Below, in pieces: positions 25,709 through 64,000 of a stretch of 64,000 nt of DNA. The position numbers were made by a program, and so were the translations under genes. Below the pieces are notes generated by a model. That model saw only the letters and a list, made by a program, of their open reading frames with translations. It did not search any database and had not been told where the DNA came from. This stretch comes from Marsupella aquatica. Taxonomy: Eukaryota; Plantae; Marchantiophyta. Position 1 is the first letter of the stretch, and each line of letters begins with the position of its first letter. Location: the NCBI GenBank assembly GCA_973895155.1, contig OZ316898.1, forward strand, positions 15,282,330 to 15,346,329, in the 5' to 3' direction.

Positions 25709-25709
25709 A

Positions 25710-38240: not shown

Positions 38241-41200
38241 CCGCCCTCTCCTCCTTGGTTGCTTACAGCTCTGCATTGAGCTCATGCACGACTTCAAACT
38301 CTATCTTATTCATCTTCTCGTAGGTTTGGTCAAGCATGTCATCCTTCTTACGCAGGTTGGCTTGAAAGTTGGCCAACATGGTGTCGAGGTCCTCCTTCAA
38401 CTTATCAATGCTTCTGTAGGCCTCATCCAAGTTGTCCTTTTTTTATGGAGGGCCGTGCGGAATTCTTTAATCTCCTCCTTTAGTGCCCGCTCCTTCCTCA
38501 GAGCTTTGATCATGGTTTTGTTGACGATCGTTAGGTGAGTAGCCTCTGCGTCTTTAAGCTTCTACTTCCACTTCTCCTTCTCCTTGAGAGCCTCGGCCAA
38601 ATGCCCTTGGGTCTGGGCAAGTTTATTCTTGATTAACTGGTTATCAGCCTTGGCCGTATCTAATTGCCCTTGCATGATGTTTATCTCATGCCTCCTAAAC
38701 TGCAACTCATGTTGAGCTTGCTTGGTTGCTTTTGGATCTCCAGCCTTGGCTTCCTTCTCTCTAAGCCGCCAAATGACCTCCTCCTTCATACTCTCCAAGG
38801 CCAGTGCTTCCTCCAACTGGCTCTTCTCCAACCTCTCCCTATTGAGAAAGGGCCCCAACTCTAACTCGTCACCAAAGACTTCGAGGGCGAGTAATTCGCA
38901 CATCCTCTTGTACTCCAAGACTCTGGAACGTGCATAGGTGAAGTGGTTAGGAGATGCCCACATCTCCCAACGCGGCCTTTGTTCCCAAGTAGTCCTCCAA
39001 ATCTTGCCAAATGTGGGCAAGGGCCCAACTTGGTCCTTTGCAAGCCGCCGAATGTCCTTTGGCCATCCTCTACTTGGCAAATTCTTCTCCTTGGCTAGGG
39101 TTGCCCTCTTTAGATCTCGGAGTTGCTCCTGCAACTCTTTGTTGGCCTGTTTTCTCCCATTGTAATTCAGAGGAGGGACGTTTGGTGGGGGAGACTCTGG
39201 GCTTCTCTGCTGTTGCAGGTCCCCACGCACCACTCTTGGAAGTGTGGGAATGAAACGGCCATAGGTCCGCACCCCTGGTACCAAACAATCTGACCCATAG
39301 CCAAAGTCATCCTCGTTGTATTCCTCCATGCCCTCCCTTCGGCCTGGAGTATTGGTGCCTATGGATCCTCTCTTGGGCTAGCTTCGAATGCGGCATCCTG
39401 TCGGGAATTGTGCATGTGTGCGATTCTCTCCTCCGGCTCCCACACCCGCCTTCCTCTCTCCTCATCATGACTTGGAACCTTGGGCCCTTGTCCCTTGGAT
39501 TCTGGTCTTGAGGCTCCCATGTACATTCGCACCCCTGGCTCATCTTCCGTCTTCCTTCTCATTACGCCCCTGAAAAACGGATCTGCTCTAGTGGGTCTTC
39601 TGGTTCCTCCCTCCCCAACCATGCCCTGTACCGGTGCCTCTACTACCATTGCTATCTTTGCCTTATAGATCATCTGCAACAGGCTTTGCATGGCCGGTTG
39701 CTGCATCGGCATGGGTTCCAGCATTGGCCTAAAGATCTGAGATATCATGGGGCTGCCTGGTGGTTCGGGATTCCTTGTTGCCGACATCGGCTCCGGCTCC
39801 TCCTCTGGTGCCCTTGCCTGTAGGGGGAGTGTTGGTGCAAAGGTCTGGCTCCAGGCATACCGGCATAACAACAGCATGTGATAACCAAGCCAAGATATGC
39901 TCCCTTGGGCTACCACTTGTTGTTCCTCTTTCAAGATCTTCTTTAGTTGGGCGAGGAGGTATCCATTGTAGTCCCGGCTTGGGTTTGGCCTCTCTGCCAG
40001 GTAAACCTGTGCCTTGCCAATCTCCGGTCTTTGCAGGTTACAATGCATTGTCACCCGCTGTCGTTGGGATGGAAAATAAAGGGAGGGAAGTGAAAACCTT
40101 GTTTTTGAGTTGGAGGTATTTGGTGATGGTTTGTGAATTGGAAGAGACTTTACTTTAAGAAGAAAACTGTAATATGACAAAAGAAGAATAGAAGGGAACA
40201 GAGATTACCTTTGGTTAGGAGAACTTTAAGGCAATTATTGTGGTAGTGACATGTGGTGGCATGGGAGGATTCAAAATTGATAAGGACATTGAGCACATGG
40301 CAGTTGAGGCGCGGAGGTTAGAGAGGACTTCAGGGAGGTCAATGAAACGGGCCGGGCATTTATAGATGGAAGAGAGGGATTGGCTGAGGGGATGTGAATG
40401 GTAAGGAAATCGGGGAGATCGAGAGGAGATCGTGGTCATTGGAAGAATTTTCTTTTTGTGTGTGGAACTCAAGGCTGGAATGAAGTGAATAGATTTTGTT
40501 TTTCAGTGAAGGAAAGCGGATGGAATTGTGGTGATTGCACGGAAGTTTTTCAGTGAAGGAAAAGAAAGCGTCTAGTTCAAAGACGATGGAGGAGAAAACT
40601 TAAGTGTAAATCGGTGACAATGCTGAGACTAAGATCGTGCAACCAAGATTATCTAAAAGCTAAGACTTGAGGACTTAAGATCAAGCATGATGGAGTATGG
40701 ACCCGAGAAACGGAAAGGAGTTCAGTGGCAATAAGGGAACTGGAGTCAAAGGGCGTTTGTTGTTGTTTAAATGGAGAAGATTGAATCCTTTTTTGGGGCT
40801 GCTGGAGAGGATCAAAAAGGGGAGGGGTTAAGGATGAGAAAGAGGGATTGTAGTGAAGTTAATTTTGGAATTCAGGCGAACTGAAGACAGAGGCAAAGAG
40901 AAAAGCGTAATAGCACTTGTGAGGAAGAGAAACTTTGGTACAAGAAGAGCGAGTGCTGATCAAACACACAAGTTGCTAGGCCCATAATGAAAAGCTCTGA
41001 AACAAGGAAACTACTGATAGCCCAACTTGGTACAATTTGAAGATTTATGTGGAGTTAGTGATACAAAAGACTGTTGGGTATGCATTCAACATAAGCGCTT
41101 CTGAACTAGAGTGCAAGTAAGGAGAGATTGAATGAGAGGAGATCGTTGTCATTGAAAGTATTTGTTTTTTGTGTGTGAAACTCAAGGCTGGAAGGAAGTG

Positions 41201-43562: not shown

Positions 43563-44388
43563 CACTAGTAGAAACCGGGGGGTATTTAGACCCCATTAAA
43601 CGACTATTCAGTACCGTATAGGACTTGGAAACGACTGGGAAGGACTCTAGTCCTTTATAGGACTGCGAGTCGTATGTTTTGTTACTATAATCAACTGAGT
43701 CCTTTATAGAACTGGTTTATAAGTCGTTTAATAGACTGGATTTTCAGTCTATTTTAGTCTTTGTGTGGGTAGCTTTGGTGAGTCGTTTTCAGTCTTTTAT
43801 GGGCTGCGATGATGAGTCGTTGGGAACGACTAAAAAGGTTATGGAGGGTAGTCTTTAAATATACTTTGTGGGGTAAGTATAAGTCTTTCATGTCAACTGG
43901 ATATGAGTGATGAAGACCCCACTATACTACTTGGAATGAACTCACTCTTGTGCACAAATAACATATTGCATTCATGTTTTATTGTGTACTTGGAATGAAC
44001 TCACTCTATAAATTCACCATTCATCATGTTAACATTAGAATACATAGTTTCAGAAAGCCATCTTCTATACCATGTACACTAATATGAATTCACAGATTCA
44101 AACTTCATAGACTACAAAGAAGGTCACAAAGTATTCCTCTATACCATACACACTAATACTGAAATGATAAAATAGATTCAAGTATCATAGACAATCACCA
44201 TAGAGCCATAGTTTGACATCAATCACTTGTTTCATACATACAGAATTCAGAAATATCAATGTCACACACAACGTCTCCTTCATCCTCTTTACCAAATGGA
44301 AAAATTGGTACAAATATTTCTTGGATCTTTCCAAGGCAATGTCAAAATGTGACACAATTCACATGATTCTATCTACACTTGCATTCAG

Positions 44389-47300
44389 TCACTGCAGACT
44401 AACACACTCTGATGGCCAGAGCACAAGAGATCCTACTGCATCTGCAATTATTTCCTGAGGTGGATCATCGTCTCTATTCGGAAATGGCAAATTACAATCA
44501 GATACAATCACTGTAGTCAACAACACTACTACATGGTCATCCGGGACCACTTTGCCATGGAATTTTGCATGATCCGGTCGCAAAATGCCTGTACCCACAC
44601 ATACCTGCGAGTCATCCTCCCATGATAGAAGATTATGGACTGGCTCTACTGTGGCTATCACCTCCACCTTACCCTGGCTGTTTTTCTTGGCTTTCCTGGG
44701 TGGCTTATACATGACATTATTCATACCTTGGTTGCGAGTCATGACTTTGGCACGAGTGTTTTGTGCTGGTGATCGAGAATTGGCTACACTCTTCTTCAAA
44801 GAATCTGCATCCATATTTGACACTTCTGATTGTGTAGCAGGATTTCCCTACGACATCATCTCAGTATCTGCCAACATTGTACTTGCTTCAATTGAAGCAT
44901 CTACAATCTTACTTGCATCCAATGTTGCTCCCAAGTTTCGACGTCGCTTCACCCTACTCCCACTTGGTTGAGAGTCTGTCAACTCTGAATCAACTACAAT
45001 TCAGTGTCATGTCCAACATAAGTCAATCACTCATCACATGTGCTAAATGTACATGTCACCAACCACAAAGTTGTCACTATCTCCTTACCATTATGAACAA
45101 CCTTCTTCCCCTTCTTTGCCATTGCCATATGCTCCATGTCTGCTTCTGTTGATCAATAAACACACCACAATATTCAGGTTGAATCTATTAACCACTGAAT
45201 TGTTGCTCAACATTCATATAGAGGAATTTAAAGCATCAGCTTACCTGATATCTCCTTGGCTATGGTCACTGAGGCACTGGGCACATCTTCTTCATTATTG
45301 CTCTTTGAATCACCTGATACATCAATCATGATGTCACTTCAGATCCCAGTTCATCCAACCAGTTCTTACAGAAAAGATTACCTCCAACCGGCTTAAGCTT
45401 CACAAAACTCCATGCACTTTTCAAATGTAATGTACTGGATCATAGCAGGTTACCTGTCTCAGCAACCTTCTTGCCCTTCTGCTTACTGATTACAGGGTCC
45501 TTCTCTGCCTCCACTCTTCCTGCATTCAAACCATTCACTCAATTCATGAAAACTTACTTCTAACATTTGAACATAGGACACAATGAACATTGGGCCGGTG
45601 TCATTTCCATACCTGTGTCAGATTTGCCAATTCCCTTTTTTGTTAACAAGGGCACACTTTGTACAATGTTGCCCTCATTGTTTGGTTGGGAACCACCCAA
45701 TTTTTCAATCACAAGCTTGAAATTAGATTCCACTGATGCAAGAAGGTTCGCTACAGATGCCTCCACAATATCCAAACGATCAGCCAATTTACTTTCCACT
45801 CGAGGGAGTCCACACTCTAATGACTTCAACCGTTCACACATCTCTGTGAGAGTTGTAACAGTTCCCTGTCATAACACAGCTTACATATCTCAGATAACTG
45901 TCCCCAAGAACTGGTTGCTTACTTCCTACTACATTTCTTTCTGATGCTCAAGGCCAAATAGTCACAGAACATACAGAATTACAACATAATCACCTGTTTG
46001 GAAGTCACACTTGTCACCTCACTCCTTTGTTTCATGAACTCCTCTCTCACTTCTTGTGCTGATGGTTCTTCACCTGTCAATTTCTTCTGCAGTCCACATC
46101 AACATACATATGAATGAAACCAAGTGTTGATTGTCAATGAAAATGTAATAATGGTAGCAAGATGATAAGTTTGAGGCTTACTATCAGGCATGTCACTGCC
46201 TTACCAATTGTTCTTTCACTGGAGCATAACTTCCTCTCCCAGCCTGTGAAAGGTGTTTCACTTTGCCTCGAGCATTTGACATCAGTTCACTCTTGCTCTG
46301 TCCAGCCTCCGACATGAACCCTTTGATTAACTGTGTCCATTGATCCAGTTCCAATGATGGGGGTGGTGGCATTCTCCTGTTAGAACCATTGTCTATCCAC
46401 ATCCTTTTCAACCTATGCCTCTCTTGTTTCAAAATCCTCATTGCATAATCTGATATGCAATCTTCAACTGGGCCCTTACCATCATTACCAACATAGTCCC
46501 ACCGTTCAAGAATGTCCTTGCAGATAGCAGCCCAATCAGCTTTGTTCTGACTCCTAAACTCTGTAATGCTCAAATCTAACCAACGCAATACTTCTCCTCT
46601 TAGGTCAGAATGCCAACGGTTCTTACCATCACATGTGGGAGTTATCCAACCTTCGGAATTCACTTCTACTTTACCAAATTTGTTACTGTCTCCTGCCTTG
46701 GTACTCCCTGAAGCGCTACTAGGTGTCCCTCCACGGCCTGGTGTCCCCCCACGGCCTGGGGTCCCTCCACGGCCTGATCTCCCCCCACGGCCTGGATTGC
46801 ATTGTCCAAACCTCCCTGGAGTCCCTGCACATTTACAGGATCCATTTACAGTCACTTACATTAGGTAAGTATGAATCATAAATCCTGCTGCCAAATATAC
46901 ACTGGACTTCAGAGCAATTCTGCAATGACCAAGTTACCTCTCCCTTGGCGCATAGATGGTTCTGGACCACCTGTCCTATTGCTTTGTCTTGATGAATTAG
47001 GGCCGTTTCTCCCGCCTGTGAATGATTGCCGCCTATCTGAACGTGGATGGCCTTTGTTGTTTTCGTGATTGTCCCAATCAGAGTCTGCATACCAACAGGT
47101 ACATGCCACACTCATGGACCTGTAAGATAAACTCTTTGCCTAGCTACACATCAGATAAGTCCATATTGAGCTAAATCTCTACTACCATCACAAAATCACT
47201 AGCACAAGGCACTTACTTGTCCAATCATCCTCCTCACCTTTCCATTGCCCTCTGTACCCGTCTCTACCACGCTCTGGGTGTTCATATTCATCCCATCCAT

Positions 47301-47559
47301 CTTCTGCTCCATCATAGTCATCATCATAATTATCAGGCGTCCCTTGCCAATAACTCTGGCTCCTTCTAGGGTATGGATTATGTGATTTCTCTCTAGCTGC
47401 CCACCTACCTGGGACTTGATGAGGGCCCTGTGCATCCTGCATAGGTGCATTTTTCTGTGAGCCCCCTGCATCTGGGTCTCCATCCATATCCAATCTTTCC
47501 TCTTCACCCCACTCTCCAAGCCCCATGTCTGTCTCCATGTCATCACCCTCTTCCCCCAT
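44389..47559 (-). CDS. CACTA TnpA-like protein (multi-exon; exon borders partly uncertain)
   Basis: Acidic and GRGG-rich N-terminus, then ILKQERHRLKRMW..PPPSLELDQWTQLI...KSELMSNAR, a coiled segment, and a C-terminal FHGKVVPDDHVVV...LPFPN...IADAVGSLVLWP typical of TnpA/Tnp1. GT-AG introns visible. Confidence 0.75.
46724..46795. repeat. 18-bp tandem repeat encoding (GRGGTP)n in TnpA
   Basis: CCACGGCCTG... four copies. Confidence 0.85.
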
Positions 47560-47736
47560 AGCTTCTGCACAGCACCCACAACCAAACAGGGAGAATCAAC
47601 ACACTAAATTCAAAGTATCAATCAATTTCATGCATATCCAACTATCCTAAACATCATTCCAGGCAACAATTCCCGTTTTGTGACTCTATGCAGGTAGTCA
47701 TCCTCAACCTCATACTTGCCAATCGCCAGCTGTTGC

Positions 47737-50700
47737 CTATTGCAAATCATCAACCTCATCATATTCCATTTGCCCAGGTTCATCATATGTCTCTCTCAAT
47801 GTTAAGGGGATGTAGTCAGTCCCTACCCGAGTTGGAAGTACAGTCTCATGACTAGGATGCTCGAATGCAGCATGGTCATCCAAACTAAACTCTACTTTAC
47901 TTCCATCCATCCGCCTGTTCCGTGCTTGGCTATGGCATACCACCCTCCAGCCATGTGACTCCTCCACATCTGCAAAGAAAGCCTGTTCAACTTGGCTAGG
48001 GAAAACAAAAGGCTCAGACCATTCTGGTACTCTGGACCTAAAATTGGCCAACAAGAACCCATCATGATCACACTTCATGGTGGCCCTTGGTCTCTGCCAC
48101 TCTGATTTCACCCATGATCCCTTCATCAATATCACTGGGACACTTGTGTTACCATAATTCAACACCCAAATGTCGGTCAACTCCCCCACATAACCCATCT
48201 TCATCCACCCCCTCTGTTCTTCAGAGGTTCTCTGCTCAAACACAGAAATCAAACCACAATCATATGATACACAATGGTCACCCTGCTCATCCCTCACTCG
48301 ATAATGATTTCCATAAGCTCTCATCCGTTTGTAGGTCAGAATAGACAATCGTGGTGGCACAGATAGAAGATACAAATCCTTCTCCATATCTGGGTGATGT
48401 CTACTATGCTCTCGAATTGTCACCCGAATCCACTGCTTGAACTGTGGGAAGGGATCCTGCTGCCCAGAGTGTGCAGCTTTTTGCATATCATATTCCCTGC
48501 AATATGAGGTACAGGCATAGTTAGGTCTAAACAACACATGACAACCTAAGATCACCCTTGGAACAGACAAGAAGCATCACAACAAAGGCAAGTCAATTCA
48601 ATCACTCACCTCCACCATGGTTGCATAGGCTCTGTGTTTGCCAGCACATATGAATGAGCCTTGTCTTGAATCGCAACAGGCAGCTGAACAGCACGTCCCA
48701 CACCTTCAACAACCTCGCCACTCACTCCATCATCTTCACCAGATTTCCAAACTCTTGTCATAGCTTCACCAGACCCAGCCATGTACTCTGTTAGGAATCC
48801 CAACGTCTCATCCTTAATGTACCCCAATGCCATGGAAGCCTCTGGCCTGTAGTATGTTCTCACATGACCTTTCAACAACTTCATGTATCGCTCCATAGGG
48901 TACATCCATCTGGTACTGACTGGCCCATATTGCCCTAGCTCTTCTACCACATGGATTAGGAGATGAGTCATAACATCAAAGAAAGCAGGGGGGAAGTATA
49001 TCTCCAAGTCATAGAGGACATAAGCAGCATCCTGCTTCAACTGCTCCAATCCTTGGGGATCCCATACTTTCACACATATACGGCGAAATACATTGCACAG
49101 TCGAAGAATGACATTACGGACTGGTTTCTGCATGAGACCTCTGAGGCATAGGGGCAAAATGTGCTGCATCAACACATGGTAGTCATGTGTTTTCATACTG
49201 CCAAGTTTATTCTTTGTAATATGCTTCTTGAAGGCACCAGCATAGCCAGAGGGCACTTTCAGACAGCTCAATCTATACAAGAATGTCTTCCATTCATCCT
49301 GTGTGCACACATAGGGAGCTTGGAACTTGAGAAGTACATTGGGATTGCTTGCATGGGGCTTCAACCAAAGGTGAGGGCGAATCCCCTTCTGTTGCATATC
49401 AGCTCGAACTGCTCCTGTATCTTTCTCACCCGACAAGAACTTCAGCAAGCTCTCACAAATATTTTTCTCAATGTGCATGACGTCCACATTGTGTTTGCTG
49501 GGCTCGAATTCCTGCACTCCACAAAGCAAAGAATTCAACAACAGAAACACTAATTAACCACATAGGAGGATTGTAACCAACATCAATCCACCATTGCTCC
49601 AATCTAAAATTGCAATCATACAGGGGCTGGAGGCTAAGTACATTACCCTCCAGTACTCCAACTCCAAGTCCATCAAGGTCTGTCTTTTCACACCGTGTTT
49701 CACCACTGGATCCTCAGGTTCTCGATCAGTGGCACTTCTCTTGTCCCAATCAGCCTTCCTGGCTGCCCACCTCAAGACTTGCTCTCTGGTGATCCTCTGT
49801 GGTGGGCCACGAAGCTCTGTTTTGTTGTTGAAGTGTGCAATTTGAGACCGTGTGTGCCTGTAAGGATGATCAACAGGCAGAAACCTTCTATGCCCCTGAA
49901 ATTTCATACTGTGCAGGGCATGCGACCACTCACTTGTCACATTTTTCCCACATGGTGTGCACCCCACATAGCCCTTTGTCACTCGTCCAGATATGATGCC
50001 ATGGCCTGGGTAATCTGCTATATCCAGCAAACAAATTGCATGCAGTCTAAAGGGGCTGGGTCGAAGAAGCCCCTTCAAAACATCATGGGTTATAACACCC
50101 CTTCTATCCACAAAGTCTTCCACTCTTCCACTGCTGGAGCCAACATGATATCTATGAATTGCTCGGTCACAAAAGCTGGTCCAGGGATTAACAGCACCAT
50201 CATGACAAAAAACCTCTTTGTAGTCATCCATGGGGGAAGGTTGTAATTTAGCAGCGTAACCGGCCAACATGAGTAACGGTTGTTTTTGTCTCCAAATGGG
50301 TTTACTCCATCCAGTGATAGACCAAATCGAAAGTTCCGCTTCTCTGCAGCAAACTGTGGCCACCTCTCATCAACAAATTTCCAATGGTTGGAATCTCCAA
50401 TGTGACACTGCAGGCCATCACTGCTCTTGTTATCAGGAGTCCATGTCATCAGCTTGGAAATGGCAGGGCATCTAAACAGACGTTGTAGTCTAGGAATGAG
50501 AGGAAAATGACGAAGAACCTTGGCAGGGTGTGTACATTTCCCTACATTCTTGTACCTGTGCTTACCACAATGAGGGCATGTCAATTTATCTGCATGCTCT
50601 TTGCGAAAGAGAACACACCCATCAGGGCATGCGTCAATAGACACATAGTTCAGCCCAAGGTTAGACATCAATTTCCTAGCCTCGTACATATTTTTTGGAA

Positions 50701-51439
50701 TTGAATTACCATCTGGTAACACATTTCGGCGCAGGAAGGTCAACAACTCTGTCACAAATATATTGGGAACATTGTGATTGCCACAGATGTTCAACAACAA
50801 CACGACAAAACCCAGCTTGGAGCAGTTCGACCCCTCGTAGATAGGAATGCAAGCTTCTTTGATGTGTTTTGGGCCCCCAAACACCCACTCCCTCTCTGCT
50901 GCACCTTCCCCAATGTCAAAGTCAGGTTCAGCTTGGCCGTCGCCAATGTGTGGCTGCGGTTCATTGTCCTCTTCTGATTCCACTATGTCGTAAAAAGTAT
51001 CAAGGTCTTCAAAAATCTCTTGAACCATTCTTGGGACATCCATCCCACCGTCCTCAGTGACTGCCTCTGCATCTCCATCTTGGTCATCCACATTCTCATG
51101 TTGGACCCCAGGACCATCCTCTGCACAGTCTATGTCCTGCTCTACGTAGTCTCTACGCCTAGCTGTATTAGAATCCACAAAGTCAGCTCTCCACTCTTCA
51201 TCAGAGGAGTCTTCTTCTGCTGGTACATTCCAAACCCTCCACCGAGGGTGCCTTTCATGCCGCAGCAGGTGAAGGTGCACAGTGTTCAAACTCAACGACT
51301 TGAATCCTTGGCACTGTGTGCATGGGCATCTCATCCTCCTACTCCTACCTTGGGCGGCCCGGGCTTGTTCACGCATCCACAATTTAGAATCATGATGCCT
51401 AATCCTAAATGGGTTGTGAAGAGGCAACCTTGGAGCCAT
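47737..51439 (-). CDS. CACTA TnpD/Tnp2 transposase (transposase-associated domain, Transposase_21, DUF4218- and DUF4216-like); exons 51439-49647, 49511-48610, 48496-47737; one +1 frameshift at ~50098-50101
   Basis: Motifs RCPCTQC, IDACPDGCVLF, LRHFPLIPRLQRLF, LSLDGVNPF, SCWPV..NYNLPPW, DYPG, DVMHIEKNICE, MKTHDYHVLMQ, FPPAFFDVMTHL, RWMYPMERYM and EPFVFPSQVEQAFF. Confidence 0.93.
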
Positions 51440-51765: not shown

Positions 51766-52299
51766 CTACCACATCAAATACGGATACCAATCCTGTTGTC
51801 GATGCCACTCAGCCCTGAGGTACTCAGGCATGTACATTAAGTCATCAAGGTCTAAACCCTGCTCATGCCATGGTGGTCTTCGATCCGTGCCTACAAGCAG
51901 TGGCAGCAGTGCCCTCCATGGTGCACATGTTGCTACCAAGTCCCTCCACTGGGTACTAATTAGTCTATATTTGCAGATATCTTGTGCGCCAGACACCACA
52001 AGAACCCTCGGCCAGACATGTGTAAGAACTATATCATCTGCCAAATCAGGCAACAAGGAACCACCTACAACATCGTGCTTGTCTAACTCATCTGCTGAAA
52101 AGTAAATGTCCTCTTCCGACTGTGCATCCTCATTCACCACAGCATTCACAACACATCCAAGGTCTGCAGGCATTATCTCGGATGGAGCTACACTCTGTCT
52201 GGTTACCAATCCACACAAGTAAGCCCAAGCAGTAGCCATGCACGATGCAACCCGTAGGAGGACCCTACATAGGGCCTGACGGTCTGGAAGAGGCAGCAT
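51766..52299 (-). CDS. F-box-domain protein (CACTA cargo)
   Basis: LLPDLADDIVLTHVWPRV......ICKYRLISTQWRDLV fits the F-box pattern. Single open exon; start codon uncertain. Confidence 0.7.
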   Translation of the reverse strand: MLPLPDRQALCRVLLRVASCMATAWAYLCGLVTRQSVAPSEIMPADLGCVVNAVVNEDAQSEEDIYFSADELDKHDVVGGSLLPDLADDIVLTHVWPRVLVVSGAQDICKYRLISTQWRDLVATCAPWRALLPLLVGTDRRPPWHEQGLDLDDLMYMPEYLRAEWHRQQDWYPYLMW

Positions 52300-52468
52300 A
52301 CCCACCAAAGTCTTCAGCCAAATAGAGCCCAGCAAGTAGATTCACAGTCACACCCCACGCAGCAGGAAACAACAATCACTTCAACTGCGACCAACCATGA
52401 CAAGATGAGTTAGTTCAAGGATCACATTTATTACAAAATTGTGTTTTATACAAAAATATGAGGGACTC

Positions 52469-53314
52469 CTACTCCTCACTCTCTCCCACCTTTGCTAAGC
52501 ATACATCTCCGCTGAATCTTGGAGGGCCAGGCCTCAAAAATATCAAAGTCCCAAGCTTCCCTCTAGCTGCTGATTCCAGAAGCCAATCAGGGGAAAGCAC
52601 CCAAAGATTGTTGTTCATGACAAAATCACGCACTGTTGTCTTAAAGAATTTTCTGCATATTTTCATGTATGACAGACCTACAACATGAGTGGAGGTTTCT
52701 GTTAGACTCTCCTCCACTGTCCCATCTAGCTCAACAACTATAGACTTGTACAGTCTGCACTTAGTCTCCCCAATTCCTTCTTCTGCAAATACCACACTGA
52801 ACCCCTTCATAATGGTATTTCTCTCCTTGCCATGCTCATTCAATATAGCATCTGCACGCATAGGATGGTGTCCTATGTTGACAACAGGTCCATATTGGAC
52901 AGAAGCAAAGTTGGGTTTCTCTGCCGCTGCTTCATAGGCTTCCTTTTCAGCCAAAGCCTCTGTAGTGGCCTCCTCACTCTCCCACAACTCATATTGCTCA
53001 GTACTCTGTACACACCTATGTTTAACAGAATCGGTCAGCCAAGAGACTTCAACTACTTTTAGACCTTGGTTGGTAATGGCAGAATCAATGAAGGACCATG
53101 ACCACTTGTTCATCACATCCAGCCATGTCCCCACAACAACATGTGTAGTCTGTGGAGTGATGTCCTTGACTTCAGTCCCATGGAACTCTGAGAATCGTTT
53201 TTGTACGATTGGCCAACTCACTTGGGTGAACCCATAGTGGCCAGGAATCAAAATGGCTTTGATTCCAGCCAACAGAGGCGGGTGGTCAACCTTTGTACGT
53301 TTCCTAGAGGCCAT
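52469..53314 (-). CDS. Tandem-BRCT protein, DNA polymerase lambda/X-family-like BRCTs (CACTA cargo)
   Basis: BRCT1: LLAGIKAILI...TTHVVV...VVEVSWLTDSVKHR...EQYEL. BRCT2: IMKGFSVVFAEEGIGETKCRLYKSIVVELDGTVEE..STHVVG...VLSPDWLLES. Confidence 0.78.
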   Translation of the reverse strand: MASRKRTKVDHPPLLAGIKAILIPGHYGFTQVSWPIVQKRFSEFHGTEVKDITPQTTHVVVGTWLDVMNKWSWSFIDSAITNQGLKVVEVSWLTDSVKHRCVQSTEQYELWESEEATTEALAEKEAYEAAAEKPNFASVQYGPVVNIGHHPMRADAILNEHGKERNTIMKGFSVVFAEEGIGETKCRLYKSIVVELDGTVEESLTETSTHVVGLSYMKICRKFFKTTVRDFVMNNNLWVLSPDWLLESAARGKLGTLIFLRPGPPRFSGDVCLAKVGESEE

Positions 53315-53912
53315 GTACACACGGGCCACCTAATCACTGTAGACCGGAAGATAATGCGTTCACCTGATAATCGGAGGGCCCTTAAAATGCTGCGTTTATA
53401 ACTTGGTCCAGTCCAGTCGTCTGGTGAGTCTCTGCTCCGATTCCAAACGGGAGAAATATTGGGACAAACGTACTAGACACCTGCAAGCATGCACCTCATA
53501 GTTTGAATATGTGCCTTCACAATATTGAAGGTGACAAGTGCAATTGTTTTGTGATGCCACATACAGATGTTGTAAATGGGCAGACATTCAATGAGAATAC
53601 AAAATGTTGGTACACTTTAAGGGAATTCTCGCAAATTAAATAGCCTTGTAACTTATATGCTCATAATGAGAAGTCCTGATTTAATTTAAGCAGTGTCATG
53701 TAAGTCGTGATCAAAATGATTGCAGAGTTAAAAAAGTTCCTAGAAGGCTTAAGGGCAGTTTTTGAAGGCATGTACCCAGGAACAAGTAATGAACTTAGGG
53801 TACTTGTTGCCTAAGCATCCTCTCCTACAGAGGTCCTTCTTCTCAAAATTGGAATGTCTGCAATCTCCAAGGTATCCACATCAGGTGCACTATGCATGTA
53901 TATTATTCAGGT

Positions 53913-54593
53913 TCAAAGCCAAGAAATGTGATCTCTCATGGGAGTGTGCAAAGTAGGATCTATGGCATGGCGATGACAATAGAAGATCCATCGATCAACA
54001 CCATGTGCAGAGTGATCATAGATGTGTCTGTCACAAGCATAGCCTTCTGCTTGACGCTCCTTCAAACAATGAAAGTGCCACATGGTGGGACACCTAACAC
54101 AGTGGACTATGTCCACCCAGAAATCTTCATCGTGCTGACCACATGCCTTGCACTTATGAAGTGGGCAAGCTGTGGCAAGATCGGGCAAACATGAAAAACA
54201 AAAGAACCTCACACAATATCTGTCAGGGCATTTCCTAACAAGTGGTGGAGCATCAACAGAGCCCTCATAAGACCCCAACTTCCCACACTGTGCACACTTA
54301 GCCTGCTTCTCCAAACAATCAGTGCACATCCAGCCTCCCTGGTGTGCTGACGGGAGGCCCACCCCTGGACAGTTGTTTTCTGCAGCAAGGTCAGACTCCA
54401 GGTTGAGGTAGAAATGCCTCATGCAAGGGCCCTCACATATGGCTAAGCCACCACCATCGTCACAAATGGCACAACAATGAGCTGCCTTCTGGAAAATCTG
54501 ACTTGCGGAGAAGTTACTACCATCTGGCCCAACTACACCTGTGTTGCTCACCTCTGTCCCCCACTTCTTGGCTCGGATTTTAGGGCGTGCCAT
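53913..54593 (-). CDS. EDM2/NSD-like multi-PHD zinc-finger protein (CACTA cargo)
   Basis: CAICDDGGGLAICEGPCMRHFY...C..VGL....WMCTDCLEKQAKCAQCGKLGS...VRKC...CVRFF...CPLHKCKAC...HCVRCPTMWHFHCL...FYCHRHAIDPTLHTPMRDHI follows the EDM2 PHD cluster. No other domains. Confidence 0.8.
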   Translation of the reverse strand: MARPKIRAKKWGTEVSNTGVVGPDGSNFSASQIFQKAAHCCAICDDGGGLAICEGPCMRHFYLNLESDLAAENNCPGVGLPSAHQGGWMCTDCLEKQAKCAQCGKLGSYEGSVDAPPLVRKCPDRYCVRFFCFSCLPDLATACPLHKCKACGQHDEDFWVDIVHCVRCPTMWHFHCLKERQAEGYACDRHIYDHSAHGVDRWIFYCHRHAIDPTLHTPMRDHISWL

Positions 54594-55212
54594 GCCTACG
54601 CATGAGACAGATAGTACAATTTAGCAGAGTGCATGGACAATACAATTTAGTGCAGTGTACAAAAAGTACAGTGTAGCATATAGACTAGAGTGGCAATTGC
54701 TACTGCAATGAAATGTTCACACACATGTGCAGAGTAGACATACTTTTTGGTTTGTTGAGCCCACACTAAAAACTGATCCCCTCGTACAATAGCTCCACCT
54801 ACACCTCAATTTTGTGGCTATGATTCACCAAAGGAGATCTGCAACAAGATTTAATGCATTTGAATCACATATAACAGTCGTGACATGTAAAACAGACATT
54901 TTTTGAATAGGATTGGTATCAAGCAGTGTGATCAGGGTTGTAATTTATACATCCTAAATAGGCTATGATAGTGAATGAGACAAATAAGTTAGGCATAAAT
55001 CACTTTTTCCAGGTTATCACATGGCCCATTAATTCCAGTCTTTGAAAGGAGACTTTTAAGTGAGCGTGCTAGCCTCTTAAATTAGGATATTGTACTTAGT
55101 GCAGCCATAATAGGATAAGTTATGTACTGTTGACCCTAAACCCTGGACCCAAAATTGGTCATAATTCAAAATCTTAAGTAAATATCCTCTCTGTTCAAGT
55201 CAAAGTGTTAAG

Positions 55213-55710: not shown

Positions 55711-57092
55711 AAGTGTTGCTTTTGTGGAGATGTCGTGTGTTCACGTCCTCTGATAAGCACCTTCGATCAGCAAGGTGAGCAGGAGCTGTACTTGCCTCAC
55801 CAACAGCAACCAACCTTAAATTATCAGTTCCCACTCACTGTGTCATTCCATTGGTTCCAGCTAGGGGTCACAGTGTAAACATAGCATGAAACACTCCTAA
55901 TCAACTTGCTTACAAACTACAATATCCAGAAAGAGTGAAAGTCTCACCCTCCAGTGAGCAGCAGAGAGGTAGTTCACTAGATGTGTTGATGTGCAGTTAA
56001 ACCTCCACTATTGCTTACTTCTGGTGTATGTTGCTTAGAAGAAGACATATTAGTAGCAGCAAATTGCAAATAATGGCCATAAGCAAACCGTGAGAGTTTG
56101 CAGAATGCTACGACAAATCCATCACAGCAGTGCTCCACAGGAATGAAACCAAGCAAAATTTGGTGACCTCGGCCAATGACAAGGCCAATGTAGTGAACAA
56201 TCCTTGACCGATCAGGATATGGATTGGAATTACAATTAGTCAGCTCTTCTTCTTTGTTTTCTAACTCTGGGGGAAATGAGCATGACCAGGGAATTCTTTG
56301 AGAAATAGAAGTGCACAGGGAAAATGAAATTGGCTCATTCAGCTGCGCAAGACCGACCATTGTAGCATACTTGGACAGTTGTTCCGCAATACACTAGTAT
56401 GACAGGAACTCAAGGAAACATTTGTGGCAATGTCTTCACAGGAAAAGAAGAATCGCTAAGTACAGTATTCTTAATAGTAGTTTCGTTCTAATTCTGAAAT
56501 CTACACATAGGATGGAAACCCAGGACATTTCTCATGAAAATTGAAGATCCATTCAACAACTCCATGATAGCCTATTCCGCATTGTGTCCGTCCCATGCAA
56601 GCGAGGGGTGTTCATCCGAGCTTAGTCTAACCACGAATGATTGTTCTGGAAGCAATTGCGACAATGTTTTGGTAATTTTCTCCTACCCAACTCAATAGCT
56701 CACAAACATGGCATTGGACCCATTAACAAATTATACTTGCCATCATTCTCAACTGTATTACATGGCCCACACTGCTGATGTCCCTGACTCTTAAGGGAAA
56801 CTCATCTCCTGGGCCAGCAACATCTCAGATTCTACAAAAATGAGAAACTATGAAAACTTATTGAAGTCATATCCTGTGATTGTAGCATGTATGATTCACT
56901 AGGACTGCAAGCAGTTCTAGATCCTGCTGCACTTTATATACAGCAGCAACCTGAGCTCCATGAACTTGTTTTTAATAGACGTGCGTTTGACCACGGCTAC
57001 AACTCCAAAACAATCAGTCATCCAATCAAATCATAACAAAACCCACCCGCAAGCTGAATGTAGAGGATAGAGACAGAGAAAATCACCTGGGC

Positions 57093-57329
57093 AATGAAGT
57101 CGGATCACAGGGTGCGAAACTAGTACTCAACAGGGTAAGACCGATCACAGCAAACAAAGCACGGAGCTAGACCACCAAAACTCCAGCAAGACAGTGTCGT
57201 GTCCATTTATTTGTAGGGAATGAAGTCGGATCACAGAGTGTAAAACTAGTACTCAGTAGGGTAAGACAGATCACAACAAACGAAGCTAACACAACAAAGC
57301 ACATAGAGGAGCAAAACTCCAGCAAGACA
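57093..57329. repeat. ~100-110-bp direct repeat, two copies (57093-57192, 57219-57329)
   Basis: AATGAAGTCGGATCACAG..AAACTAGTACTCA..AGGGTAAGAC.GATCACA..AAAACTCCAGCAAGACA appears twice. Confidence 0.85.
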
Positions 57330-58250
57330 TAAATCAGACCTCACAGCCTTTTGACTAGCAAAGGGAGATAGTCTACGCTTTCCATTGCTGGTCACAGCGC
57401 GACGGGCAATCAGGATGATGCCATGCCGAGTAGAAGAACAACAAAGCATTCTATAAAAAGCACTGAGGTTGGCGTTATAGTAAAAGTGGTAGTACTTCTA
57501 GTAGCGCGACCAACTCGCTAAGTGACAGTTCGGAGTAGCTTACCTCCGAGAAGAAAGCCAGAGCAATTTAGCAGAAATCCCCAAGAAAATCCCCACTCTG
57601 AAGATGGTAAGCTTGCAGCTGCTCCCCCGGGTGCTCCCCTCAACCTCGCCACTTCTATTCTGAGTAGCGCAGGTCCTCTCCACCCTCTCACCTTGCACCT
57701 CCTGAACAGGTGACCAGCACTATCCACTCCCACCGCAACTGTGGACGGTCCCTAAAAAAATGCAGATGACAGCGACCAATAGACAAAGGATTACATGCGT
57801 AGACCTGGCAGAAATCTTCAGTGCAATGCGTGACTAAGCTGACCAGTATTTCTCAATAGGGTACCAAAAGCCACAGACAATACAAAAGGCAGTGACAAGC
57901 ACAGGCGGTGGCAACTAGCAAAGGCAGTGGCAAGCAAGCAATCAATGATGATAGCGGCAATCGACAATGGCGGTGGGAGGCAGCAATAGGAATCACCTGA
58001 ATGAAGTACCAATCCGCAGCGGGAGGGAATGTCAACCTTCTTGTCAATTGCAGACCACCTCCGACCTCAAGGTCTCCCTCACGTCAACACCTAAAATGTA
58101 AGTGATGACCCAATGTATCCTCCCTGATCGCAGCTTGTGATGCCTAGACAGGAATCACTCGGCCGGTTAAGTGGGTAAAGCAGGAAGGCACCCTAGGAAC
58201 ACCTTAGTATAGTGACAAAACAAGGAAAATATAAACAATTAGGGGCAACC

Positions 58251-61200
58251 ATGGAACCCGGGCAGAGGCTGGAGGTAAGGCTGAGGGTGAAAACCCGATT
58301 AGGGTTAGGGTGCGTTAAGCGTCGGCGGCTAGGAAGGATCAACGGGAAGAAGGACCAGCAGAGGAGAGGGGTAAGGAGCGCTTGCAGGAGATGGTGGCTC
58401 ATTTGCGAGCACGAACTAGGCAGACGACTACGGGAGGCCAACTACTGTCAGCTGCTTAGGCAAGCACTCGGGGAGAGAGTAGATACCGACGATCAACCTA
58501 AGGAGGGTATGAGCAACGTCAATCAAGCGGCACATTTCTGGGGATGCCTGTTCGAACGGGCAACTGAGTACATCAAGACTTACGAGGACGAGGAGTCAGA
58601 AAGGGCAGCTCGAGAACGGCAGGAGCTCGCTCGATTGTGGGAGCTGCAGAAGACGGCTTTCTTAGGAGGCGAACTCATCAAGGACGAGTTCCTGTGGACG
58701 CCTACTTCCAATCAACTCGACGATCTTCTGTTTTGCAAAGACAGCGTCGTCGGCATCCGAGAGGCCATCAAGAACTGCAACGACATACACTGGGAATTAA
58801 AGGGTAGCACGGAAAGGTGGACCCAGGCAACGGTGCTAGGAGAAACCTCCACGGCAGCAGAGATGAAGAGGAAGGGAGCCGTCAACGATGAAGCCACCCC
58901 GACAAAAAGAACGAGGTCGGCGGCACCAAAGAAGCCAGCCGAGCAGCAGAGCAGGAGGCAGGGAGAAGCCAAAGAGGAGGAGGTCGATCCCATCAAGGCC
59001 ATTCCAACCAGGGATGACACCTGGAAGGGCTGGGCGGCAACCCTACCGGTGGAGGTGCAACTACATTTTGCACGGGAGGAGGATGCATGCTTTACGGCCA
59101 TGCAGACCAAGAAGTACCAAGGCTTCATGGCCGGATCCGGCTTGGAGGCCTTTGTAAGATTACCATGGCTGAAGCCGGAGGTACCGGAGTCAGACCTATT
59201 AGAATTCGTGGGGTCATGGGAACCCGAGACCAATTGCACGAGGATATATGGGAAGGATTTCTATCTTACTCCCAAGGTGATTGCCGAAGTGTTTGGCTTG
59301 CCGATGGGCAATAAGACCAAAGTTGATACCAGGAAGACCTTGCCTGACAAGGAGTTCCGGTCGTTCCCCGGGCCATCAACGAAGAATGGCTTCTTCCGGA
59401 ACACCTGCACCAACCCGCACATAGGAGAGATGATCGACTTCTTGCGGGTGACCATGCATTGTAACTTGCCGAGGGCAGAGATCGGCAAGGCACAGGTCTA
59501 TCTGGCAGAAAGGCCAGACCCAAGCCGGGACTACAACGGGTACCTCCTCAACCAATTGAAGAAGATCTTAAAGGAGGAGCAGCAGGTAATCGGCATGGGG
59601 AGCGTGTCGCGGCTTGGCTATCACATGCCGCTGTTGTGCCGGTATGCCAGAGGTCAGACTTTTGCCCCGGTACTTCCCCTGTAGGTAAGGGCACCCGAGG
59701 AAGCTCCAACGCCGAGGCCGTTGGCTGAGAAGCCTCAACCACCTGCTAGTCCTACGATCGAGCAGGTGTTTAGGCCCAGGAAGGAAGACTTGCCGATGCA
59801 GCAACCAGGCATGCAGAGTCTGCTGAAACTACTGGAGAAAGAAAAGAAATCGGCATCGGCAACAACAACAACAACAACAACGGCAACGGCAACAATGCAG
59901 GACACTACTACAGAGGTAGGCCTACACCGGCTCACAAGAGAAAACCCCTTTGCTGGAGACAAGGAGAGAATCAGGCCGGAATCCAAGCCAGGTGTTCGAA
60001 TGTACGTGGGAACCTCAAGCTCCGAATCTGAGGCAGAATTGCCTGAAGCTCCTACCGAGGAAGAGGAGAGGGAGAAGCCGGAAATCCAAGAGGTAGAGGA
60101 GGCAGTGGAGGACTGCAGCCATGATAATTCCGGCTATGGGTCGGACCATTACGTTCCAGGAGTAAGGACCTGTGGCCGGTTTGTCCCCACACTTCCAAGG
60201 GTAGTGCGAGGGGACCCCAACCAGCAGAGTAGCCCTGAGTCTCCCCCACCAGATGTTGCTCCCCCGAGCTTCGACGGCATAAAACAGATGGTGCAGGAAT
60301 TTCAGGAGCGAATCAAGCAGGAGGAAGAGGCCGCCCTGGCTAAGGAAAAGGATTTACCAGGAGGAGATTGGCCGGAGGACATCAGGTGGCTAGCCGAAAA
60401 AGGAAGCAAACCTCTAGCCACGATTGAAGAGATCCGCAGGACGGCTTGGGAGCAGAGGCCACGATGGGCGATGCCGATCACTTCTACTTACTCCACCTAC
60501 GCTAAGAATAGAGCCATGGAGTATGGTGAGATGTGTGGGGAACTTGCGCTCGGCATCTTTGGAGAGGAGTTGGAGGTAGGACCCTTTTTCCATAGGGAGC
60601 AGTTGGAGAAGCACCAATTAGAAGAAGCGGTGGCTTTAGAGAGAAGCAAGAAGGACGAGGTCATTCGGCGGCTTAGGAGGATGGAAGCCGAGATTGAAGA
60701 TCTAAGGGCGGCCAAGAAAGCCCAAGATGAACTGCGGATTAAACGACATGAGCTGAACATCATGCAGGGGCAGTTGGACGCCGCGCAGGCTGATAATCAG
60801 AATATCAAGGATAAACTGACTCAGACGCAGGAAGAGTTGGCCGACACAATCAAAGAAAGGGAAAAGTGGAAGCAAGAGCTGAAGAATACAGAGGAGGCCC
60901 ACATAACAGCCAACAGCCGGGCCATGGCAGAGACCCAAAGAAAGGAATGGGCGTTGAAAGGGGAGCTCGAGAAAATCCGCGGAGCCCTTGAGCAGAAGGA
61001 GGTCGAGTTAGGGAAATCCTATCAAGGGATTATGGCGCTGCAGCAGGAGCTTGCGTCCCTGACGGCCAGCTTCAAGGCCGACCTAAGGGAGAAGGACGAG
61101 ATGCTCGAACAGACTTACGCCAAGATGAACCAGATGGAGTCTGTCATCATTGCAGAGCTCGACAAGGAGCTAAGAGCAACCCAGGAGGAGAAGGCTACCT

Positions 61201-61910
61201 TGAAGAAGGAATTGGAGGAAGCCCACAGGGAGCAGGAGGAGGCCAAAAACGAGCTGGAGGGGGCACGTAAGGACCTGGATGAAACCCAAGAGGAGTTGGA
61301 GGAAATCACGAGGAAGATGGAGAACCTACAGCGGCGGGCCGACAACCAAACAGAGCGGCTGAAGAAACAAGCCGCAGTATTTAAATGCTTAGCTGCAGCA
61401 GGTCCATCTCCCGTTGGGACAAACCAGTTACCAGGGGTGGTAATTGCCGAAGGACAAGCCGCGCCACCTGCACCAGTGCCGGAAGTAAGTGGGAAGGGGA
61501 AGGGACCAGCTGCCGAGCCACCAACAAAGAAGAAGCGGAAACCTTCAGGGTCAAGGAGTAATACGACTTCACAGGCCGTGGTGATCAAGGAGGTAGACCC
61601 AGCACCGACCCCAGACAGGGTCACGGCTAAGGATCCAACTACCCTAGGGGAAGGGGAAGCCGAAGCCGTGGGAGTGGCTGAAGCCGAAGCCGTGGGGTTG
61701 GCTGAAGCCGGAGCCGTGGGGGTGGCTGAGGCCGAAGCCGTGGGTATTGCCGAGGCCGGTGTCGAGGCTGAAGCCGAAGGTGGACCCAGTCAGGCCGATG
61801 GAGAGTTGACTCGGTCAAGGGCAGGTAATCTGTCAGTAGGCGGGCCAACGGCAGTGGCTGAGGAGGAAGTGTTGGGGGCGTCCATTGAGGATCCACCACC
61901 GGTGTCGTGA
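58251..61910 (+). pseudogene. ~1,220-aa retrotransposon accessory ORF (PMD/plant-transposon-protein-like segment + long coiled coil) with one premature TAG at 59682-59684
   Basis: ORFs 58212-59684 and 59721-61910 share a frame. The minus-strand copy has CAG at the stop position (PTLPLQARAP). Segment GLEAFVRLPW...LLEFV...IYGKDFYLTPKVIAEVFGLP. Heptad-rich E/K region. Confidence 0.75.
61655..61780. repeat. 24-bp coding tandem repeat (AEAEAVGV)n
   Basis: GCCGAAGCCGTGGG(A/G/T)(G/T/A)T(G/T)GC(T/C)GA, four to five copies. Confidence 0.85.
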
Positions 61911-62835
61911 CGGTGCAAGGGCGCCGTTCCTTTTAGGGAGGGCGGACGTGGAGGGAGGAGGCGTGAGTGGGCAGGGCGGGCACGGATCTCCACGTTTAGG
62001 ATTAGGATCAGAACCAGGAGCGGCCCTGACACTTAGCTTAGTGGGATTACGGTCCCACTGGTAGGAGCAACACTTGTGCTCCTGCCTTGCTGTACATAGG
62101 TAGATTCGGGCAAGTAGATTACTGTTAAGTAGATTAGGCTTACGATGCAAAGAATGGCGGATCCACTACCAGGATAAGTACCTGGGCAGCGGGGAGCTCA
62201 GGGCCTCTTCTTTAGCAAGTTTTTAGTTTGCACCAGCCGGGCTGGGATCAAGTAGTACGAGAAGCTCTCGGTTAGTCATACAGTGACCCTTGTGTATATT
62301 CATGTTTCCTCATGCCTAAGAGCTGAATAGAGTTGGCCTCACGGCTTAGTTCGCAGAACTTGTGTATGAGATGTACTGTTTGTATGGCAAGTGCATGGTA
62401 TGACTCAGTCAGAATGAGTCATTTTGCTATTTGTGTGTCGCATTAACTTGTGTGAAGAGTGCCCACATCAACAGAAGGAAGGAAAGTAAGCAGGGGAGTG
62501 AGAGTTGGATGTGTCGAGCTGAGAGAGGTCTTAGCGGCTTAACCAAGCCTATTGGGGATCATTCCGGCGGCGGAATCCAAACATACCTAACAAGACGGAG
62601 GGGAAGACAGGGGAAGACAGGGGAAGGCCTATATTAGGCCGGCTACGTATCTCATGACCCGATGAAGGATCTGTCCAGTATATGTGTGTAAAATGTTAAT
62701 AGTAGTAGTAGAAGGTTAGCAGCGTCCCATGCCGCTAAGCCGCGGAAACGGCCTCGCCAAGCACGAAACCTGCGGGAATCGACTTGAGCTGGGGGGTTTC
62801 TTGGGTTTAGGGAGCCATGGGACGCACCACATTTT

Positions 62836-62853
62836 TGGCGCTAGATGGAGGGG
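62836..62853 (+). promoter_or_regulatory. Primer-binding site
   Basis: TGG-initiated 18-mer 4 nt after the LTR CA end and 48 nt before the gag ATG. Cognate tRNA not determined. Confidence 0.75.
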
Positions 62854-62900
62854 GCATTTCTTAAGCCGTGAGATATGAAGTTAGAACGGAAGCGTAGGTA

Positions 62901-64000
62901 ATGACTGACCTTACGCCGAGGGAAGAAAGAGTGATTCAACGGGAGAGAGCTCGACTGCAGCAGCTCGCCGGGTGGCATGATACACAGCGACTGAGAGGGG
63001 CAGAAAGAGCTGGTAGCTCCGAAACTGGAAGTGGCGTCGAAGAAGACATACCAGAAGAAGAGTCGGTAAGGAGAAGTGAGTCTCCAACCGACATGGGGGA
63101 ACCAGAGGCACGGCCAGACGAGAGGCCAGGGACCAGATTGAGCCAGCGGTCGCGCATACATTACAAGGCATTTCATGGGAGAGGAGATGAGGATCCGGAC
63201 GAATGGTTGGATGATTTCGAGGGAACCGCTGCAGCAAATGGAGAATCGGCCATCAAGATGCAGATTCTTCCCGGCCTGTTCAAGGGTGAGGCTAGGCCTT
63301 GGTACAGAGCATTAGATGTGGAAGATCAAGCCATCTGGGATATCTTCAAAACACTCTTTGTTAAGGAGTTTCGACCCATTGGAACTTCAGAACTAGCAGT
63401 GCTGAAGTTGGGACAACTTCGGTTCAAGGAGAACAAATCCTTCAGGAAGTTCTTGCAACGCTTTCAGAAACTGGTAAGACGTACAAAGACCAATGCATCT
63501 GAAGGTATGCAACTTCAATGGTTGGTGAATGCTTTGCCACAGAAGATGAGTTTTGCAATTAGGAAGGAGAACCCGGAGACCTTAGCCGAAGCAATTAAGG
63601 ATATTCAATTATACATTAATGCAGATATCACAAGCCGGAAGAAACAGCTTAAGTCTGAGAGTTCCTCATCAGAGGAGGGATCACCCCATAAGAAAAAAGA
63701 TAAGAAGAAGAAACATTCCAAGAAGTCTAGAAGTGATAAGTCAAGCTCGGATAGTGGAAGTAGCAAGAGTGAGTCATCTTCTAGTTCTGAAGAAGAAAAA
63801 ACTAGGAAAAGGAAGGGCAGAAGGAGAGGGAAGACGAAAGTCAAGATGGAGGCTAAGCCACCAGATAACATCGTAGCCCTTACCGAGCAACTTAAGGCTA
63901 TCATTGCAGAGGTAAAACCAAAGAAGAAGGTAGTACAGGAGGATAGCTCTGTATGGTGTGCCTTATGTTATAAAACCGGACACCATAAAGATGCTTGTCC
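62901..64000 (+). CDS. gag: Ty3/gypsy Gag (open to the window end)
   Basis: FHGRGDEDPDEWLDDFE...FKGEARPWY...WDIFKTLFVKEF...FLQRFQKL...WLVNALP...PETLAEAI and the knuckle WCALCYKTGHHKDAC. Absent from the ORF track because the stop lies outside the window. Confidence 0.9.
   Translation, partial: MTDLTPREERVIQRERARLQQLAGWHDTQRLRGAERAGSSETGSGVEEDIPEEESVRRSESPTDMGEPEARPDERPGTRLSQRSRIHYKAFHGRGDEDPDEWLDDFEGTAAANGESAIKMQILPGLFKGEARPWYRALDVEDQAIWDIFKTLFVKEFRPIGTSELAVLKLGQLRFKENKSFRKFLQRFQKLVRRTKTNASEGMQLQWLVNALPQKMSFAIRKENPETLAEAIKDIQLYINADITSRKKQLKSESSSSEEGSPHKKKDKKKKHSKKSRSDKSSSDSGSSKSESSSSSEEEKTRKRKGRRRGKTKVKMEAKPPDNIVALTEQLKAIIAEVKPKKKVVQEDSSVWCALCYKTGHHKDAC

Follow-up and report, generated by a model that had tools for sequence, protein, structure and literature searches.

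Arabidopsis EDM2 binds H3K9me2-containing chromatin and, together with ASI1 and AIPP1, allows full-length transcription through heterochromatic TE-containing introns, with AIPP1 binding to EDM2 through the RFD. Short H3-like motifs are known from histone mimics, such as the ARSK motif of influenza NS1 and the ARKT self-site of G9a. In PHD fingers that read unmodified H3K4, an acidic cluster before the first Cys forms the contact with H3K4me0 (PMC3241642, available text).

Autonomous DNA transposons are known to carry their own accessory genes. VANC and KIU-Ulp1 of the VANDAL MULEs are transposon-encoded anti-silencing genes (available text of PMC13317346), while TET/JBP genes are found in fungal EnSpm elements and SET genes in oomycete Harbinger/MuDR elements (available text of PMC12730594). 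An anti-silencing activity is also described for Spm TnpA, and the accessible part of a survey of 962 Repbase Spm proteins mentions ‘various accessory proteins’ (bioRxiv 10.64898/2026.08.24.746577; see also the available portions of PMC3632883 and PMC10241880).

Here, we analyzed an ORF within a window of 64 kb (the window being the whole stretch of DNA under analysis). The first-pass annotation had described it as a stand-alone EDM2-like PHD cluster, which the element around it might use either as a reader that gets its long spliced transcript processed despite silencing, or as a decoy.

An ORF with an EDM2-type zinc-finger cassette

The features of the ORF are as follows:
53913..54593, minus strand: uninterrupted 226-aa ORF, ATG to TGA, with a basic N-terminus (residues 1-21) and an EDM2-type zinc-finger cassette (residues about 28-226)
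53925..53981, minus strand: EDM2-type C-terminal motif YCHRHAIDPTLHTPMRDHI, residues 205-223
54408..54410, minus strand: codon 62, a zinc-ligand position of PHD1, with Tyr in this copy and His in the other copies and in relatives
54564..54590, minus strand: residues 2-10, ARPKIRAKK, similar to positions 1-9 of histone H3
54596..54612, minus strand: predicted splice-acceptor-like site, ending 2 nt 5′ of the ATG

The cassette and the basic N-terminus make up the entire content of the ORF. With a profile built from the ORF and 5 of its relatives, EDM2-like proteins reach 83-114 bits (Sphagnum, Adiantum, Rumex and green algae), compared to 32-37 bits for human NSD2/NSD3. The Cys/His positions of the cassette align with those of EDM2-like proteins. 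They amount to about 2.5 PHD fingers of an atypical type, in which ligand order and flanking motif are conserved, and the C-terminal motif pattern is present in 80 of 136 host EDM2-like proteins vs. none of 5 non-green PHD-cassette proteins. The Cys/His spacing and flanking motif had been called EDM2-type at first pass, and these comparisons bear this out. Pfam finds only three NSD-like PHD models in the ORF, all of them sub-threshold.

The ORF ends 3 residues past its DH[IV] motif, as do its relatives, and hence lacks the N6-adenine methyltransferase-like (ELP) domain. No DNMT1-RFD match was found, and the ORF contains neither SET nor PWWP, NSD not being the nearest cassette; no catalytic or DNA-binding domain was found in the ORF product. 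Within PHD1, Ile52 precedes the third Cys (Cys53), which is the hydrophobic residue typical of H3K4me0-reading PHD fingers of the AIRE and BHC80 type, while inspection by eye shows no Trp at the usual aromatic-cage place of H3K4me3 readers of the ING and BPTF type.

AlphaFold gives a confident model from a 64-row alignment (pLDDT 87.4, pTM 0.81). In this model, residues 1-21 are disordered and the remainder forms one unit. The best matches among solved structures are partial, namely the PHD5-C5HCH modules of NSD2/3 (Z 5.5-5.9), which cover under half of the model; one of them is the NSD3 PHD5-C5HCH structure that contains an H3K9me3 peptide (Z 5.9, rmsd 2.7, 84 aligned). The structure search found no solved structure of an EDM2 cassette. 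The product is predicted to be a small nuclear zinc-finger protein. A 5′ exon is possible, given the acceptor-like site just ahead of the ATG.

Setting of the ORF in a multi-copy CACTA element

The element around the ORF is a CACTA transposon that is present in many copies and lies on the minus strand here; the ORF is one of several accessory ORFs that stand in a row upstream of its Tnp2 transposase. The other parts of this element are:
43563..43900, no strand assigned: CACTA terminus CACTAGTAGAAA at 43563, with subterminal ACGACT-type repeats
44389..47595, minus strand: spliced coding region downstream of the transposase, weakly matching Transposase_24 (Ptta/En/Spm), probably TnpA-like
47737..51439, minus strand: CACTA Tnp2/TnpD transposase frames (Transpos_assoc, Transposase_21, DUF4218, DUF4216)
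51766..52341, minus strand: open frame in which one stretch weakly resembles an F-box (E 0.08-0.09, below cutoff)
52469..53314, minus strand: tandem-BRCT accessory ORF, 281 aa
55213..55710, minus strand: small Cys/His-rich ORF of no known family, with 2 extra bases at 55346 in other copies

Counted outward from the transposase, the accessory row consists of the F-box-like frame, the tandem-BRCT ORF, the PHD ORF and the Cys/His ORF. In the present copy the transposase is frameshifted at about 50091, and other copies are free of this frameshift; the Cys/His ORF is probably frameshifted here as well, because other copies have 2 more bases at 55346. Searches of Pfam, Atlas and PDB returned no family for the Cys/His ORF, and it shows the highest summed depth within the element in 3 of 4 runs. 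An acceptor-like AG is present ahead of each of the PHD, BRCT and transposase ORFs, which suggests that the three may be spliced from a shared leader.

In run X1 the summed contig depth, which is not a copy number, goes up from 49 to 1,925 at the CACTA end, an increase of about 40-fold. Across the transposase it amounts to 1,900-4,000, and between 53857 and 55924 it reaches 4,400-8,200, before dropping beyond about 56,400. In all 4 public runs it remains high from the CACTA end through the ORF to about 56,400, which places the ORF in the same repeated unit as the transposase. The opposite (5′) terminus of the element, and with it a 3-bp target duplication, was not found within the 64-kb window; membership of the ORF in the element is therefore based on depth and gene order. 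The sequence CACTAGTATG at about 56392 was considered as the missing terminus and rejected, as it faces the same way as the 43563 end. At this second CACTAGTA end of the same orientation (about 56392-58000) the depth drops and one contig runs on into other DNA; the same region is lower-copy sequence with a 126-bp duplication at 57090-57286.

The nearest named relative of the transposase is from Riccia sorocarpa (41%), which makes a bryophyte host likely. A metagenome locus, L001, has a tandem-BRCT ORF (L001:782-1681, 25% identical) upstream of a 44%-identical transposase, in the same order as here. None of 6 metagenome loci with related transposases showed a PHD gene, L001 ending 780 bp upstream of its BRCT ORF; furthermore, no PHD-family locus was found in a scan of metagenome or viral contigs, and no related transposase in a scan of prokaryote genomes. 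The tandem-BRCT ORFs at 52469-53314 (minus strand) and L001:782-1681 are of interest in their own right, as a stand-alone gene kept upstream of CACTA transposases that are 44% identical. Within the literature searched, there appears to be no description of a CACTA lineage that has retained such a row of accessory genes, PHD and BRCT among them.

Between 44000 and 56000 of the window, CpG is depleted (o/e 0.16-0.42) and TpG/CpA enriched, with CHG near expectation, which points to past decay through methylation at CG rather than at CHG sites.

Other features of the window

At 25660-31400 (plus strand), palindromic repeats of the TAGCGCCAGGCGCTA type are scattered among broken ORFs of another repeat, and one of these ORFs weakly matches N6_N4_Mtase (DNA methylase) at 28736-29170 (E 7e-4, below cutoff); this is possibly a mobile element with a DNA methyltransferase fragment. 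A Ty3-type region at 58197-64000 (plus strand) has two long ORFs of 495 and 741 aa, with coiled-coil and no known domain, ahead of a gag ORF at about 63140. In addition, a diverged inverted copy (72-94%) of 59444-62834 is located within 33296-40058, and LINE ORF1-like fragments with a zinc knuckle are found at 22754-24205 (plus strand).

Copies of the ORF and signs of selection

Over 53860-54680, 95 differences were found in four runs, and 39 of the 40 best-supported ones lie inside the ORF. These 39 comprise 14 silent and 25 replacement changes and no stops, which gives a modest pN/pS of 0.46 (binomial p 0.02) for this best-supported subset. No indels inside the ORF are present among the listed differences, and one contig of run X6 skips 72 bases of the ORF region in frame. 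The pattern indicates purifying selection among the ORF copies. Lack of conservation among copies had been named at first pass as an outcome that would refute the annotation; the cassette is conserved, both among copies and in distant relatives that are about 40% identical.

The present copy has a damaged PHD1 ligand, H62Y; His62 accounts for nearly all of the depth in the 4 runs and, among the 13 family rows spanning this position, is present in 12. Judged by this change and by the transposase frameshift, the present copy is a slightly decayed member of a family that has intact members.

A family of short relatives

Together with 23 short relatives, the ORF of the window forms a family whose complete members are 220-245 aa long and which is kept down to about 40% identity. 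The relatives share the end point of the ORF, and many share its start Met, so that the cassette-only form described at first pass as stand-alone is confirmed at the level of the ORF. Many relatives are broken, as would be expected of copies of a transposon-borne family. All 15 relatives that were looked up are Logan, JGI or ENA proteins labelled unnamed or ‘hypothetical’, and this family of ~220-245-aa proteins is undescribed. Two ENA proteins, the distant member P0022 and the 45%-identical Tnp2 P0191, are each encoded on a contig of 13,432 bases, probably one and the same.

The trees took in 66, 35 and 29 of 164 proteins, with 8 short fragments in none of them. In one, 15 family rows form a single clade (100/100) on a long stem, which was recovered again with 8 and 7 rows in the other trees. 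Two marks set the family apart: a Cys at position 132 in 15/15 members vs. His in 49/49 outside the family, and a PHD2 loop of 7 aa in 15/15 members vs. 12-43 aa outside it.

There are other short EDM2-derived proteins without a methyltransferase-like domain (P0046, P0064, P0077, P0043 and P0051). These nest among seed-plant rows, and cassette-only forms seem to have had more than one origin.

Origin of the cassette

Besides EDM2, liverworts have a paralogue that lacks the methyltransferase-like domain and terminates shortly past the cassette (Marchantia MARPO_0005s0286, Riccia, Calypogeia). Three motifs are common to this paralogue and the short family: they occur in 10/10, 9/10 and 6/10 family members and in 6/6 each of the paralogue group, compared to 1/128, 3/128 and 1/128 of the other hosts, although the motifs were chosen by eye after viewing the sequences and the family members are related. 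The liverwort paralogue also gives the top profile score for 6 of 10 family members. The full-length phmmer ranks of P0021 and P0150 are inflated, as both repeat the cassette, and the donor comparison was therefore made with single cassettes. For 10/10 members tested, green-plant profiles score above the non-green profile, and the cassette is EDM2-type rather than NSD-type; grouping with unrelated PHDs, which would have spoken against the first-pass annotation, was thus not observed.

The family is sister to the liverwort paralogue with support of 98/89 under LG+G4 and 58/81 under a mixture model, whereas a third tree set puts it with another methyltransferase-less group (78/50). AU tests reject none of the liverwort paralogue (p 0.415), liverwort EDM2 proper (p 0.127) and a dictyostelid outgroup (p 0.425) as the sister group. 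Vascular-plant EDM2 was rejected in this position (p 0.024). The trees leave the donor unsettled and agree weakly with the liverwort paralogue. By its motifs, the family looks derived from the methyltransferase-less liverwort paralogue rather than from EDM2 itself. The link to EDM2 proposed at first pass thus holds for the type of cassette that the element carries, but its source lies, as far as the motifs indicate, in the paralogue. A capture long ago from a methyltransferase-less bryophyte EDM2 paralogue, followed by retention through selection, is the likely history.

Loss of the acidic patch and an H3-like N-terminus

The acidic residue before Cys1 is present in 123/129 host proteins and in 0/20 family members. 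The family has instead a His two places before Cys1 in 18/20 members, and the median net charge of the 25 aa before Cys1 is +2, compared to −10 in hosts.

The N-terminal ARPKIRAKK of the present copy follows the ARTKQTARK of H3, with the reference H3 10-mer taken as printed in PMC5415848. In 11 of 20 family members the N-terminus beats shuffles of its own composition at p<0.05, although the p-values for the H3 likeness overstate the case because it was noticed post hoc and the members are related. The strict pattern [AS]RxKxxA[RK] is found in 10/20 members, compared to 0/157 control N-termini and 0/609 basic windows. Among 22,680 permutations the true H3 order ranks 7, and within three separate subgroups it falls in the top 0.1-0.4%; the 8 short fragments outside all trees were assigned to these subgroups by eye. 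None of 600 control draws reaches 0.001.

The likeness is partial. At H3 position 3, Thr is present in only 2/20 members and Pro in 8/20; a T3A change abolishes H3 binding by the BAZ2A PHD finger (PMC5415848). Lys is as frequent as Arg at H3 position 8, the motif is internal rather than at the free N-terminus in about half of the family, and P0002 and P0003 are without it. In the AlphaFold model the H3-like sequence lies in an accessible (disordered) tail. The basic stretch may also be a plain nuclear localisation signal.

Possible role of the ORF product

Given the conservation of the family, the ORF is very probably a selected accessory gene of the transposon. As to its role, we tentatively favour an anti-silencing decoy or adaptor rather than a conventional histone reader, a choice about which our doubts still slightly outweigh our confidence. 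The element would express the product, probably with splicing of the transcript from a 5′ leader, and the basic tail would bring it into the nucleus. The cassette could then dock either on chromatin, through its changed surface, or on proteins that partner the host EDM2-like protein, while the H3-like tail would soak up or misdirect host proteins that read or methylate H3K4/K9. By analogy with what VANC and KIU do for VANDAL elements, the net outcome would be that the element stays expressed and mobile. Of the two roles suggested at first pass, the decoy appears the more plausible, and it gains a clue from the H3-like N-terminus.

A transposition aid is an unlikely alternative, in which the PHD cassette and the tandem-BRCT protein would tether the transposase to a chromatin state or to break-repair factors and so steer insertion or repair. 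Chromoviruses, which are targeted by a chromodomain, offer a parallel. The PHD and BRCT genes do stand together ahead of the transposase, with BRCT in the same position in the distant element of L001, and RAG2 is a precedent for PHD-guided recombination (available text of PMC3241642). However, the cassette is not fused to the transposase and has lost the canonical H3K4me0 contact, and a role of this kind leaves the H3-like tail unexplained.

It is quite improbable that the ORF encodes a selected accessory protein with no histone role, the tail being an NLS or a DNA-binding basic stretch and the cassette binding a non-histone protein. The Lys/Arg-rich composition of the tail, its disorder in the model and the replacement of Thr3 in most members would fit this, and PHD fingers with non-histone partners do exist (PMC3241642, available text); yet the order of the residues fits H3 far better than do permutations of the same letters, and basic windows of host proteins do not fit.

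We are more doubtful still about an EDM2-like reader, which would bind H3K9me2 and recruit ASI1/AIPP1 and in this way let the transposon complete its long spliced transcript across heterochromatin. This reading takes its appeal from the EDM2-type cassette and motif, from the many introns predicted in the element and from the NSD3 fold with its H3K9me3 peptide among the closest solved ones, and EDM2 does promote full-length transcripts over H3K9me2 introns (PMC7529245, available text). The ORF is, however, without the acidic regions, RFD and methyltransferase-like domain listed for EDM2 in the same text; AIPP1 is needed as a bridge (available text of PMC9292364 and PMC10852260); the acidic patch before PHD1 is absent in 20/20 members; and the motifs indicate the paralogue, with the vascular-plant EDM2 grouping rejected. 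The transcript-processing role suggested at first pass is thus disfavoured, and the best reading is that the product would not stand in for the ASI1-AIPP1-EDM2 polyadenylation complex.

Finally, passive Pack-CACTA cargo, i.e. a captured host fragment without function, is highly improbable and already largely refuted: gene fragments are often captured by CACTA elements and for the most part decay (PMC13317346, available text), and many relatives are broken and the present copy has a damaged ligand, but frame, length, start, stop and zinc ligands are kept across lineages about 40% identical, the family-specific changes are fixed on a long stem branch, and the pN/pS value speaks against it.

Returning to the decoy or adaptor, its most specific form would be that an old bryophyte CACTA lineage encodes a histone mimic, in which a re-tuned EDM2-type cassette bears an H3(1-9)-like tail, occupies the docking sites of host EDM2-like proteins and diverts H3K4/K9 readers or writers, within a multi-gene counter-silencing kit (PHD, tandem BRCT, F-box-like and Cys/His ORFs). 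As a whole, this is a speculative proposal that we regard as unlikely. If true, it would be the first transposon-encoded histone mimic within the literature searched, with a mechanism akin to viral histone mimicry and a protein small enough for direct testing. Furthermore, the ORF family is a natural variant from which to learn how the EDM2 cassette reads chromatin, and it draws attention to the unstudied methyltransferase-less EDM2 paralogue of liverworts.

Comparison with known systems

In the literature searched, which included few subscription papers and neither Repbase nor supplements, we found no CACTA-borne EDM2-type cassette, no transposon histone mimic and no paper on, or function for, the Marchantia paralogue; the supplements of the Spm survey could list the domain.

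EDM2 and EDM2-like proteins (Arabidopsis EDM2, Selaginella XP_002976689 and Marchantia MARPO_0028s0116) share with the ORF the ligand order and the C-terminal YCxxH...TPxR[DN]H, at 26-34% identity. Unlike them, the ORF lacks acidic regions, RFD and methyltransferase-like domain; it has a His-to-Cys ligand swap in PHD2, a 7-aa PHD2 loop and no acid before Cys1; and it is transposon-borne, with a basic H3-like N-terminus. The liverwort paralogue (MARPO_0005s0286/MPTK1_1g03210, Riccia sorocarpa R1sor_003797 and Calypogeia fissa) has its cassette C-terminal too and the three diagnostic motifs in common with the ORF, but its members are host proteins of about 620-770 aa (plus one unnamed row of 280 aa) whose N-terminal part is long, and they keep an acidic residue pair before Cys1 that the ORF does not have. 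The PHD cassettes of NSD1-3 are a related atypical PHD array, to which the ORF adds no SET or PWWP.

The short H3-like motifs of influenza NS1 (ARSK) and the G9a self-site (ARKT) lie in a disordered tail, as does the candidate motif of the ORF. VANC, KIU (Ulp1), Spm TnpA, TET/JBP and the SET genes are likewise separate accessory ORFs of autonomous DNA transposons in which a host-derived domain is kept by selection. Those genes, including the known counter-silencing ones, encode DNA-binding regulators or enzymes, whereas the ORF combines a reader-type cassette with a histone-like tail; a conserved, catalytically empty reader cassette of this kind would represent a different strategy.
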